From contig NZ_BCZP01000005.1 of assembly GCF_001598795.1 (NCBI RefSeq), positions 60,001 through 92,000 of the forward strand: a stretch of DNA of 32,000 bases. Direction: 5' to 3'. A program made the position numbers and the translations under genes. This DNA is from Delftia acidovorans NBRC 14950 (lineage in GTDB: Bacteria > Pseudomonadota > Gammaproteobacteria > Burkholderiales > Burkholderiaceae_C). Each line of letters begins with the position of its first letter. Within the stretch, counting starts at the first letter, position 1. This document shows, piece after piece, positions 24,661-27,065 of this stretch. A model generated the notes under the pieces. The model was not told the origin of the DNA. It saw nothing but the letters and a program-made list of their open reading frames with translations, and searched no databases.

Positions 24661-25974
24661 ATGTCAGATCAAGCCATGTTCAGCCAGTTGTACAACGCCC
24701 TTGTCGATAATCTCGGCACCCCGAATTTCCAGTTGCTTGGCACCCCCAAGGACTTCAGCTGGGGCACGGCTCCGACCGGGCAATGGGACCCGGCCGCCTA
24801 TCAGATCGTCAGCGGCATGCCGCAGTGGTCCGCGATCGGCCAGTACGGCAGCCTCGATGCAACGCTCTTCGACGCCGTTCGTCAGATCTTCGGTCACGTG
24901 ACATTCAAGGTCAGCCCCGAGCAGCAGGCCAATCAGACGGAGCTGGCCAACCTGTGCGTCCAGAAAAGCAATGCGATGGCCAAGGCCAACAGCGACATGA
25001 ACCAGTTCTACCTGAGTTCAAAGCAGAACGGCGGCCTCATATTCGCAGCCCGCTACCCTGACATCAGCACGTGGATCAACAACGCGCCGGAGGCTGCTGC
25101 CTACATTACGACCATCCAGGCGGCCACCAACGCCTACAACCAGGCGGTCAAGATGAAGATGGAGCTGGAGCGGGCCAGCATGCCCAGCGATCTGCAGCGC
25201 GCCATCGACATGATGCAGATTCCGTCGGGCGACCCTGCCTCAAACAACGCACCGGCAGGCTGGACCAAGGTGCCGGATGGCTCGGGCATCCTGCGCTGGC
25301 AGCCGGACTTCCACATCGACACGACGGGCGCGGACTGGCGCGCAGCGCTCAGCAATGGCAGCGCAGGCGCGTTCTCGATCGCGATGAAATCTTCGCAATC
25401 GAGCAGCGACTTCAAGTCCTCGTTTGCCAAGGGCTCGACCAGCGTTGGCAACTTCTTCTGGAGCGTCAACGCATCGGGCGGCTGGAGCAAGTCGGACCTG
25501 TTCAACCAGGACTCGAGCTCGGCCGTGAAGATCAGCTGCGAGTCCTCCACGCGCGTGAAGGTGAATCCGGGCGACTGGTACCCCGGCGGCTTCATGAGCG
25601 AACTGGCCAAGGCACAGCAGGGGCCGAACGGCCAGGGCTACACCATCGTCGCCCCGTGGGTGGCAAACGGTGGCCCGGGGTCGAGCTCCCTGTTCGGCCC
25701 GAACGGCATCGTCGCGGCAAGGGTGTCCGAGCTGCTGGTCGTCTACAAGCCTTCGTTCGAGATCACGATGAGCGCCAACACCTATCAGCAAAACAAGCAG
25801 GCCTTCGAGGGCAGCGCGGGTGTGCGCATCGGGCCCTTCACCTTCGGTGGCACGGGCGGTCACCAGTCCGAGTACACCAAGAGCACCGCACAGGCCAATA
25901 CCTTCAAGGGCAGCAGCACCTCGGTGAACCCGCAAATCATCGGCGTGATCGTCGACTTCCCGGGCATCCATTGA
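24661..25974 (+). CDS. Hypothetical protein, paralog A of a two-gene pair (438 aa; no recognisable domain, signal peptide or TM segment)
   Basis: This is a long ORF with coding-like composition. AGGA lies 10 nt upstream of the ATG at 24661; TTG 24652 and ATG 24676 are alternative starts. It is clearly homologous to the downstream ORF (see findings). Confidence 0.75.
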   Translation: MSDQAMFSQLYNALVDNLGTPNFQLLGTPKDFSWGTAPTGQWDPAAYQIVSGMPQWSAIGQYGSLDATLFDAVRQIFGHVTFKVSPEQQANQTELANLCVQKSNAMAKANSDMNQFYLSSKQNGGLIFAARYPDISTWINNAPEAAAYITTIQAATNAYNQAVKMKMELERASMPSDLQRAIDMMQIPSGDPASNNAPAGWTKVPDGSGILRWQPDFHIDTTGADWRAALSNGSAGAFSIAMKSSQSSSDFKSSFAKGSTSVGNFFWSVNASGGWSKSDLFNQDSSSAVKISCESSTRVKVNPGDWYPGGFMSELAKAQQGPNGQGYTIVAPWVANGGPGSSSLFGPNGIVAARVSELLVVYKPSFEITMSANTYQQNKQAFEGSAGVRIGPFTFGGTGGHQSEYTKSTAQANTFKGSSTSVNPQIIGVIVDFPGIH

Positions 25975-25987
25975 CCTGAAGACCAGC

Positions 25988-26023
25988 GGGTGGGCGGGAC
26001 GCCGTGGCGGGTCCCGCCCACCC
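25988..26023 (+). other. 12-bp perfect GC-rich stem-loop between paralogs A and B (no T run)
   Basis: The arms are GGGTGGGCGGGA (25988-25999) and TCCCGCCCACCC (26012-26023) with a 12-nt loop. The element lies 14 nt after the A stop and 31 nt before the B ATG. Confidence 0.6.
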
Positions 26024-26054
26024 CGCCCACCCCCGTCAACCGGAGACAGCGTTC

Positions 26055-27065
26055 ATGAACGTGATCCATCAGTTCCTCGGCGGCTTGGCTGATCTGGTGC
26101 CTCCGCCCCCAAGGGCCCCAAGCGTATCGAGCGGGCCGAAAACCGGCATGGTGTTCAAGCGCTCGGCATCCATTTCGGCGCCGCTGGTGCGGGGGCAGAT
26201 GCTGATGCCGGTGACCGCGTGGAACTGGCCGGATCCAGTGACCGGCACCATGGCCGATGCGCAGTTTCTCTTTGCAGATACGGTGCCCCAGTCCGCTGCC
26301 AATGGCGCGCTGTACCAAGCGTCGGGGCGCAGCTTTTCGCAGGGATACAAGACCTTTCTGCAGGTACTCGAAGCCTGCAAATTCCCCTATCAGTCGATGC
26401 TTGCAGGCGCCATGCAGAAGATGGCAACGCCTCCAGGCGAACCTGCATACTCGCCCACTCCGGTGGGATGGACCAAGGTGTACGAGACCGGCTACCTCCA
26501 GTGGAAACCGATCTGGACACTGCCCAAGAGTTCGTCGGAGTGGAGCGCAGCAGTGGCTGTCGGCACGATCGCAAACCCCGGCACCTTGCGCTTGAATCTC
26601 AACGACACATCTGGCGCAGGGCCGCAGGCTCCGGCGTCTCTGCAGGCCCTGGACGCTTCCGGCCGCGTCCTTGCGCTACCCGCCGCTTCACTGGAGACGG
26701 TCACGATCACCTCTGAATGCTGGGACCAAGTGCCGATCTACCCCGGCAGCTGGTACGACGCCTCGATGGTGGCGCTGGGTCGCGGCCTGGTGCCGGATGC
26801 GGGCGTATTCTTCGGGCCTGGCGGCCTGATGGCGTGCCGTGTGTCAACTTTCTACGTCGCGTTGAAACCCCGCTTCGACTTCACTGCCGCAGCGCCGATC
26901 CCCGCCTCGCTGCGCCAGACGCTGGATGAGGCTGACACCGTGCAGGCCATGGGGGTGACGGTTCAGCGCGCACGCGGAGACGGACAGCCAAACCAGGCCT
27001 TGCGCCTCGTGAACACGGAGCCTGCCCCCGTCATCGTGGCCGTGAGCCTCGAAACCTTGGCGTGA
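26055..27065 (+). CDS. Hypothetical protein, paralog B of the pair (336 aa; no recognisable domain)
   Basis: The ATG at 26055 has a GGAGA SD 8 nt upstream. It shares several collinear motif blocks with paralog A. Confidence 0.75.
   Translation: MNVIHQFLGGLADLVPPPPRAPSVSSGPKTGMVFKRSASISAPLVRGQMLMPVTAWNWPDPVTGTMADAQFLFADTVPQSAANGALYQASGRSFSQGYKTFLQVLEACKFPYQSMLAGAMQKMATPPGEPAYSPTPVGWTKVYETGYLQWKPIWTLPKSSSEWSAAVAVGTIANPGTLRLNLNDTSGAGPQAPASLQALDASGRVLALPAASLETVTITSECWDQVPIYPGSWYDASMVALGRGLVPDAGVFFGPGGLMACRVSTFYVALKPRFDFTAAAPIPASLRQTLDEADTVQAMGVTVQRARGDGQPNQALRLVNTEPAPVIVAVSLETLA

Follow-up and report, generated by a model that had tools for sequence, protein, structure and literature searches.

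The 32,000-nucleotide stretch of Delftia acidovorans NBRC 14950 analyzed here (contig NZ_BCZP01000005.1, positions 60,001 to 92,000; hereafter the window, numbered from its first nucleotide) contains two adjacent genes, which we call A and B, whose products are paralogues that match no known family. A and B are linked and co-diverge across phyla, and the pair is a functional unit. Judged from sequence, the best explanation is that the two proteins would be subunits of a self-contained, horizontally mobile module. Our preferred reading, to which we assign a probability of roughly 35%, is that this module is an undescribed two-component, non-enzymatic, membrane-active (pore-forming) system under local regulators.

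A and B are paralogous genes without a recognizable family

Gene A (positions 24661–25974, + strand), the larger and more conserved member of the pair, encodes 437 amino acids (aa) from its ATG, one fewer than the 438 given in the original prediction. For its faster-evolving paralogue B (26055–27065, + strand), the predicted length of 336 aa was correct. Candidate ribosome-binding sites lie 11 nt upstream of the A start (AGGAA) and 8 nt upstream of the B start (GGAGA), and each start methionine is the same methionine as in homologues; the alternative starts, TTG at 24652 for A and GTG at 26004 for B, are unlikely. Compared with the orthologues of Comamonas sp. 17RB, the ratio of nonsynonymous to synonymous substitution rates (dN/dS) is 0.084 for A and 0.14 for B, indicating that both are under purifying selection and are therefore real genes. 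Together, the purine-rich motifs, shared start methionines and purifying selection bear out the earlier description of both open reading frames (ORFs) as coding-like with plausible Shine-Dalgarno sites. A is an exact match to WP_034392346 (DR66_2269), and at 90% identity B clusters with Daci_3102 (strain SPH-1). Cluster sizes are 189–236, with D. acidovorans, D. tsuruhatensis and D. lacustris represented.

Neither protein has a signal peptide or a hydrophobic segment of transmembrane grade, as had been predicted; the maximum over a 19-residue Kyte-Doolittle window is 1.24 for A and 1.19 for B. Cysteines are found at residues 99 and 293 of A and at residues 108, 222 and 261 of B, so that neither protein has an N-terminal cysteine.

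The homology between A and B, first proposed from short collinear matches, is significant both by BLASTP (E-value 1e-18, 26% identity across 248 aa) and in a comparison of the A-family and B-family profiles with hhalign (probability 99.9, E-value 1.6e-35). Searches for a known family came back empty, as the original prediction had it. No match to A or B was found in Pfam, NCBIfam or PADLOC at E-values up to 1, or in the PDB with either single sequences or profiles. PHROGs returned nothing for B and only chance-level matches for A (E-values 0.14 and 0.59). When 42 family members were scanned singly at E-values up to 10, no weak match recurred. Source databases name the family members "hypothetical protein" throughout, apart from the automatic labels "phage tail protein" and "frataxin-like", and we rejected both. 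The first, attached to B (UniRef A0A1H3U4L3), finds no support in PHROGs, BFVD, phage records or IMG/VR; the second, "Frataxin-like CyaY" on the JGI protein P0011, corresponds to a Frataxin match in just one of the 42 members (E-value 0.025). A literature search found no paper naming Daci_3100–3102. Since A and B could be placed in no known family, and have no domain model, structure or literature, we rate the A/B family as outside the described kinds; with improved fold searches it may yet turn out to be a divergent variant of the gasdermin-like type.

A and B are linked and co-diverge across phyla

The A family is rare but scattered widely over phyla. A word-index search found 84 A homologues among 5.8 billion proteins, and an exhaustive profile search of 1.84 billion representative proteins found 721 representative clusters at E-values up to 1e-3 (435 at up to 1e-10). 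The family is present in 52 species-level genomes, with hosts that include Nostoc, Photobacterium, Pontibacter, Psychroserpens, Kordia, Marinicella, Corallococcus, Solirubrobacteraceae, Hoeflea, Arthrobacter, Curtobacterium, Acidobacteriota, Nitrospirales and Planctomycetota. Delftia A is 53–54% identical to the Nostoc and Photobacterium proteins. Identity within the family thus does not follow taxonomy, which indicates horizontal spread. No family member was detected in 50,697 phage records searched with tblastn or in IMG/VR, and the only case of plasmid carriage was on an 860-kb Rhodobacter megaplasmid.

Hidden Markov model (HMM) searches of the fetched loci divided the family into two clades. 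Clade I, whose members are at least ~36% identical to Delftia A, carries B. In 22 loci, B lies directly 3' of A on the same strand, with a gap of 16–323 bp or overlapping the 3' end of A; in two Rhodobacterales loci (L029 and L066, the latter with a probability of 99.2), B is upstream of A and divergent. Linked A–B loci cover Beta-, Gamma- and Alphaproteobacteria, Cyanobacteria, Bacteroidota and Actinobacteriota, and the Pontibacter locus has two copies of B. The only clade I loci without B next to A are on contigs that end after A, plus one acidobacterial locus where a Ser/Thr kinase-TPR gene lies 3' of A. The pairwise-identity matrices of A and B are strongly correlated (Mantel r 0.81, with none of 2000 permutations as high), and mean pairwise identity is 30% for B compared to 52% for A, showing that B diverges faster than A. 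The original prediction of an undescribed functional unit is thereby upheld: the genes are paralogues of no known family whose pairing is conserved far beyond Delftia. Clade II, at ~28–31% identity to Delftia A, has no B.

All Delftia loci examined have the same flanking genes, in the order MarR, luxR, A, B, GST, HxlR. In Comamonas sp. 17RB, a split luxR, A and B are found in another neighborhood.

Predicted structures point to an asymmetric pair

The AlphaFold2 (AF2) model of A has a mean predicted local distance difference test (pLDDT) score of 79 and a predicted template modelling (pTM) score of 0.72. Residues 1–85 comprise an N-terminal helix and a small alpha/beta portion, and residues 200–437 form a beta-rich body that includes two 16-residue strands. 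Between these lies an A-specific insertion (24916–25191, + strand; residues ~86–177), delimited by the AF2 model, a gap in the hhalign alignment, and conservation. It is predicted to form an antiparallel helical hairpin (helices 86–131, 135–141 and 143–173) with the conserved motif KQNGGxxFxAxYPxxxxWL at its tip. The helix-like block noted previously in A is this inserted coiled-coil hairpin, and it is wholly absent from B by hhalign.

The second A-specific stretch in the original prediction, described as rich in Ser, Gly and Thr and partly alternating, is also real. It corresponds to residues ~237–301 (25369–25563, + strand), where hydrophobic and polar residues alternate strictly across 50 homologues. 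The model has low confidence at residues ~250–285 (pLDDT 58–65 for residues 250–280). The counterpart in B is shorter and poorly conserved. We consider residues ~237–301 to be candidate membrane-insertion hairpins. The most conserved motif of A, G-[LVF]-R-I-G-P-F-x-F-G-G-S-G-G-H-E-S (25816–25869, + strand), is a Gly-rich loop that is degenerate in B; we used it as a search pattern for related loci. The model of B (pLDDT 90, pTM 0.87) has an A-like core without the hairpin, with an N-terminal helix followed by a ~30-aa Pro-rich linker of low confidence. In both families, nearly all invariant residues are G, P, W, F or Y, and neither family conserves a constellation of His, Cys, Ser, Glu or Lys, which argues against an enzyme.

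The case for membrane activity draws on several of these properties: the asymmetry of the paralogous pair, the amphipathic Ser/Thr-rich region of low confidence, the long strands and the Trp/Gly/Pro-dominated conservation, together with a faint similarity to gasdermins and occasional toxin-type fusions or neighbors, both described below. If the model is correct, the alternating, amphipathic, low-pLDDT segments of A and its 16-residue strands would be the signatures expected of insertion by a beta pore-former. The idea of a binary toxin or pore-former, raised in the original prediction, is plausible on this indirect evidence.

We propose the following mechanism. A and B would be made in soluble form in the cytoplasm, their expression governed by a transcription factor encoded at the locus (in Delftia, the tandem helix-turn-helix LuxR protein), and would associate through their common beta-rich core. 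A would be the effector, with its Ser/Thr/Gly-rich amphipathic segments refolding into membrane-inserting beta-hairpins and its ~65-Å helical hairpin, which has an aromatic tip, serving for reach or docking. B would be the partner that controls or specifies assembly, as a co-assembling subunit, a chaperone or inhibitor, or a specificity factor. The outcome would be membrane permeabilization, either of another organism after release or of the producer itself. We infer the physical interaction of A with B, the membrane activity and the individual roles of the two proteins from the properties listed above.

Comparison with gasdermins and two-component pore-formers

We compared both models with 350,542 PDB chains using Foldseek. 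The top four matches to the A model are bacterial gasdermins (7n52, 7n50 and 7n51; E-values 9e-3 to 3e-2, template modelling (TM) scores 0.15–0.26), followed by generic helical hairpins of membrane-fusion proteins (MFP/EmrA/AcrA) and colicin R domains, which match the insertion. The top four matches to the B model are Runella gasdermin chains (E-values 3e-3 to 2e-2, TM scores 0.21–0.29); the Neurospora gasdermin-like pore RCD-1 (8jyz; E-value 3e-2, TM scores 0.16–0.23) comes next, and 7n51 ranks lower. Family assignment through structure models and Foldseek, as proposed in the original prediction, did not succeed, with no significant PDB match for A or B. The best E-value in a Foldseek search of BFVD was 0.045. 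An hhalign comparison with the N-terminal domain of human GSDMD gave no signal, and is uninformative.

The defining features of gasdermins have been described (PMC10153256, PMC13475620), among them a conserved, palmitoylated N-terminal cysteine (PMC10153256). Bacterial gasdermins (7n50, 7n51, 7n52), the top-ranked folds for both models, resemble A and B in having a beta-rich core with helices, no export signal, no enzymatic activity and a sporadic distribution in bacteria. Unlike gasdermins, A and B have no gasdermin HMM match, and the fold match is not significant (TM scores 0.2–0.3). Bacterial gasdermins are ~240–300 aa long, compared to 336 aa for B and 437 aa for A, and have an N-terminal cysteine and an adjacent protease; A and B lack the cysteine, and no protease recurs in 130 flanking ORFs at 16 loci. 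A further hallmark of bacterial gasdermins is a short inhibitory peptide at the C-terminus, which cleavage releases. The partner of a bacterial gasdermin is a protease, whereas the partner of A is a paralogue, and the 90-aa helical hairpin of A is absent from gasdermins. Gasdermins head the lists for both models, but we treat this resemblance as a lead, not as a classification: the scores do not rise above noise, the queries are homologues of each other, and the gasdermin hallmarks that could be tested are missing.

RCD-1 of fungi consists of two related protein variants. RCD-1-1 and RCD-1-2 (8jyz, 8jyy) are two related proteins that act together, as the linked paralogues A and B may do; the structural likeness is a sub-threshold Foldseek match for B (E-value 3e-2). 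Activation of RCD-1 is cleavage-independent and involves no protease (PMC13475620). The RCD-1 variants are alleles of different individuals that meet on cell fusion, whereas A and B are in one operon; there is no sequence similarity, and the RCD-1 proteins are shorter (~190–250 aa, compared to 336 and 437 aa). A more specific version of our preferred reading is that A and B are a bacterial analogue of RCD-1-1/RCD-1-2: a protease-independent two-component pore system, either very divergently gasdermin-like or with a new fold, in which A would be the hairpin-bearing effector and B the faster-evolving paralogous partner. We regard this version as doubtful.

Staphylococcal leukocidins, YaxAB/XaxAB and the CDCL long/short pairs offer another parallel, since each has adjacent paralogous genes for two soluble, non-enzymatic components, one of which is structurally elaborated relative to its partner. 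Unlike A and B, leukocidins and CDCLs have signal peptides, and none of these systems matches A or B in fold or sequence (Foldseek, PDB, Pfam). We rejected an alpha pore-former of the ClyA/YaxAB type: B is largely beta, helical structure in A is restricted to the polar insertion at residues 86–184, and Foldseek gave no such match. The original prediction had also likened the Ser/Thr-rich segment of A to the insertion hairpins of aerolysin/ETX-MTX2 proteins. The alternating polarity is indeed a point of likeness, but there is no Pfam match (PF03318, PF01117) and no such protein among the top 50 Foldseek matches for either model, so the comparison is not borne out.

Neighboring genes and alternative readings

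In the 130 ORFs flanking 16 clade I loci, the regulators encoded include response regulators (five), AraC (five), GerE (three) and LytTR (two) proteins. Clustering of the neighbors revealed no recurrent third gene for clade I. The original prediction had described the LuxR protein as a dedicated-looking regulator and had asked if luxR-A-B synteny recurs. A tandem helix-turn-helix gene does lie upstream of A in Delftia, and A–B does recur across phyla, but the luxR linkage is not general, being limited to Comamonadaceae, one Nostoc and a few other loci. Elsewhere the regulators are AraC proteins, response regulators, or TetR with AfsA. AfsA is a butyrolactone synthase, and a TetR-AfsA pair is of the butyrolactone-signalling type. 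In all five actinobacterial loci of clade II (L006, L009, L047, L048 and L052, from Arthrobacter, Paeniglutamicibacter, which has two such copies, and Curtobacterium), the A homologue is ~460–490 bp 3' of TetR and AfsA genes, an arrangement which suggests that these homologues are under the control of a signal molecule.

In clade II loci from Hoeflea and Blastocatellia, a conserved ORF of ~255 aa (beginning MPRIRWKA) lies directly 3' of the A homologue (L031, L034, L044, L045, L049 and eight more Hoeflea loci; for example, L034 positions 7355–8128). It has no match in Pfam, NCBIfam or the PDB. Its motif, HSEM followed after ~45 aa by LPHCGYC, can be read as deaminase-like, resembling the HxE/PCxxC zinc motif of nucleotide deaminases. 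Some family members carry C-terminal extensions. One metagenomic protein (P0266; L065 positions 420–2375) has a C-terminal Tse2-like ADP-ribosyltransferase domain (E-value 2e-5) and is followed by a 241-aa ORF, and members from Lysobacterales and Planctomycetota (L033, L037, L040, L043 and L054) have in common a ~145-aa extension of no known family. We count the Tse2-like fusion and the HxE...PCxxC ORF as conflict-type context in favor of a membrane-active module.

The fusion would also fit a toxin with its immunity protein or chaperone, with A secreted, or otherwise released, as a toxin or translocation module and B as a decoy paralogue that binds A and keeps it inactive in the producer. B evolves faster than A, without the helical hairpin and with the Ser/Thr-rich segment in degenerate form; the conserved intercistronic hairpin would fit a tuned ratio of A to B; and a small ORF follows the fused relative, while the Lysobacterales and Planctomycetota extensions could be read in the same way. 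We nevertheless consider this arrangement unlikely. Clade II has no B, there are no secretion-system genes nearby, and the Tse2 match falls below the Pfam cutoff (25.6 vs 26.6 bits) in a single metagenomic protein. That neither protein has an export signal speaks against a classical secreted toxin.

Still less likely, in our estimate, is a gasdermin-like suicide effector of abortive infection, in which A would form pores in the inner membrane of its producer and B would be a paralogous sensor or inhibitor in place of the protease trigger. Gasdermins are the top structural matches, A and B lack export signals, the Pontibacter locus has an AbiL-like RloB/AAA pair nearby, and a variable Delftia region 3' of the pair has a STAND-like AAA_16 gene or a DUF4011 helicase, depending on the strain. 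On the other hand, we rejected an association with defense islands, since PADLOC run on the 130 neighboring ORFs gave only generic cross-matches (kinases, ABC ATPases and regulators). A gasdermin-plus-protease model was rejected as well: the one trypsin-like candidate, an Arthrobacter neighbor containing GDSGS, is a sub-threshold Trypsin_2 match (E-value 3.3e-3) that is not kept in Paeniglutamicibacter, and the 3' genes at the Paeniglutamicibacter and metagenome loci are unrelated both to this neighbor and to B. Moreover, neither A nor B has the N-terminal cysteine, and the module was not found in phages or viral contigs. Its position is fixed both in Hoeflea and among the Delftia loci examined, which, with no defense-island context, argues against a classical defense gene.

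A non-toxic role is only slightly less probable, in our estimate, than the preferred reading. A and B could be cytoplasmic partners in a heteromeric complex that is structural or serves in binding, for example as a scaffold in stress, storage or signalling, and that does not act on membranes. The constant position among ordinary metabolic genes in the Delftia loci examined and in Hoeflea would suit such a role, as would the statistical insignificance of the structural matches to pore-formers and the absence of export signals, transmembrane segments and catalytic residues. Less easily accommodated are the sporadic occurrence over phyla, which tracks horizontal transfer and not taxonomy, the regulators encoded nearby in many loci, and the occasional toxin-type fusions or neighbors.

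Several of our results count against a pore-forming module. The gasdermin matches are not significant (E-values 3e-3 to 3e-2, TM scores 0.16–0.29, root-mean-square deviations 6–15 Å), and the Foldseek searches with A and B are not independent of each other. Neither sequence is tied to any pore-former family, and the literature does not mention these genes. The 130 clade I flanking ORFs include no recurrent protease, secretion system or immunity gene, and A and B have no signal peptide. Finally, clade II functions without B, and the position of the pair is fixed in every Delftia locus examined, unlike that of fast-turnover defense or toxin islands.

Local elements and base composition

The LuxR-family regulator upstream of A (23678–24211, + strand) has 177 aa and consists of two tandem GerE helix-turn-helix stretches (residues 43–98 and ~110–165; Pfam PF00196, E-value 8.9e-36), and has neither a receiver nor an autoinducer-binding domain. 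Elsewhere in Delftia the annotated start is at 23720, giving 163 aa. The position of luxR 5' of A is conserved in Delftia and is also seen in a Comamonadaceae metagenome-assembled genome (MAG); in Comamonas sp. 17RB the gene is split or degraded. A small ORF of 18 aa (24505–24561, + strand; MNHSSRSPPAISPKYPMP) with the strong Shine-Dalgarno sequence AAAGGAG lies ~100 bp 5' of A. Conservation among Delftia MMO-42, Comamonas sp. 17RB and the Comamonadaceae MAG extends over ~190 bp upstream of A and takes in the Shine-Dalgarno sequence and first ~10 codons of this ORF (MxxSxRSPPA), which may encode a Pro-rich leader peptide of A.

Between A and B is a GC-rich intercistronic stem-loop (25986–26026, + strand) with a stem of 13–15 bp and a predicted folding energy of -41.5 kcal/mol (z-score -2.1). 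The stem is conserved in Delftia strains and is retained in Comamonas sp. 17RB despite changes on both arms; the relative expression of A and B, or the stability of the mRNA, may depend on it. No match to Rfam was found in the region 22900–27400, nor were a σ70 consensus promoter or an intrinsic terminator detected on its + strand. The microsatellite reported 3' of the pair was confirmed as a compound repeat, (GTCCAC)~7(GTCAC)~6 by Tandem Repeats Finder, located at 27068–27143 between B and the convergent GST gene. It is expanded only in this strain, with one or two units in three other Delftia genomes, and is probably not part of the A–B system.

The original prediction placed the pair at the core of a lower-GC insert. 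GC content is indeed lower in A (62.3%) and B (64.4%), and in luxR (58.8%), than in the flanking genes (~70%); the region from 22.4 to 32 kb as a whole, not A–B alone, has a GC content of 60.4%. At third codon positions (GC3), A has 86%, B 77% and luxR 67%, compared to 86–90% for backbone genes. The codon usage of A is therefore not foreign-like, and its lower GC results from a composition rich in Ser, Asn, Thr and Lys. The base composition of the locus as a whole indicates an old acquisition. Truly atypical composition is limited to luxR and the two unusually long, AT-rich intergenic regions that flank it (23029–23677, 649 bp, 51% GC; 24212–24660, 449 bp, 53% GC; surrounding genome ~68%). The pair is not the core of a sharply bounded low-GC insert, and the description as a low-GC insert fits these elements better than A.

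Two further regions of the window deserve mention. On the - strand, 3' of an AraC/GyrI-like gene, the region ~29600–32000 (GC ~57%) varies between Delftia strains. A strain with an identical A has a 506-aa gene without a Pfam match and a 1510-aa AAA_16 (STAND-like) gene (L063 positions 14951–21010), and another has DUF488, a transposase and a DUF4011/AAA_12/DUF3320 helicase instead (L064 positions 14380–21314). The region from ~29600 is possibly a defense-related variable hotspot. Farther away, the product of a low-GC (~54–56%) gene at 8275–9504 (- strand) is a secreted protein of 409 aa that starts with a signal peptide and whose C-terminal sequence (PVPTLQHTALVVLSLLAAAIGWMGLGRRQR) looks like a sorting signal of the IPTL-CTERM/PEP-CTERM type. 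The gene adjoins an Lrp/AsnC regulator gene at 9837–10322 (- strand).

Implications

Whatever its function, A–B is a compact two-gene module that is conserved in at least six phyla, lies outside all domain databases and has good structure models, making it a tractable target for giving "hypothetical" proteins a function. Its hosts include organisms of ecological or clinical interest, such as Delftia, the algicidal Kordia, Nostoc, Photobacterium and myxobacteria. Should A and B form a membrane pore, theirs would be a new bacterial pore-forming family in which an operon-encoded paralogous partner replaces the protease or secretion signal. New toxins or cell-death effectors would then be available from this family, and the gasdermin story could extend to cleavage-independent two-protein systems in prokaryotes.

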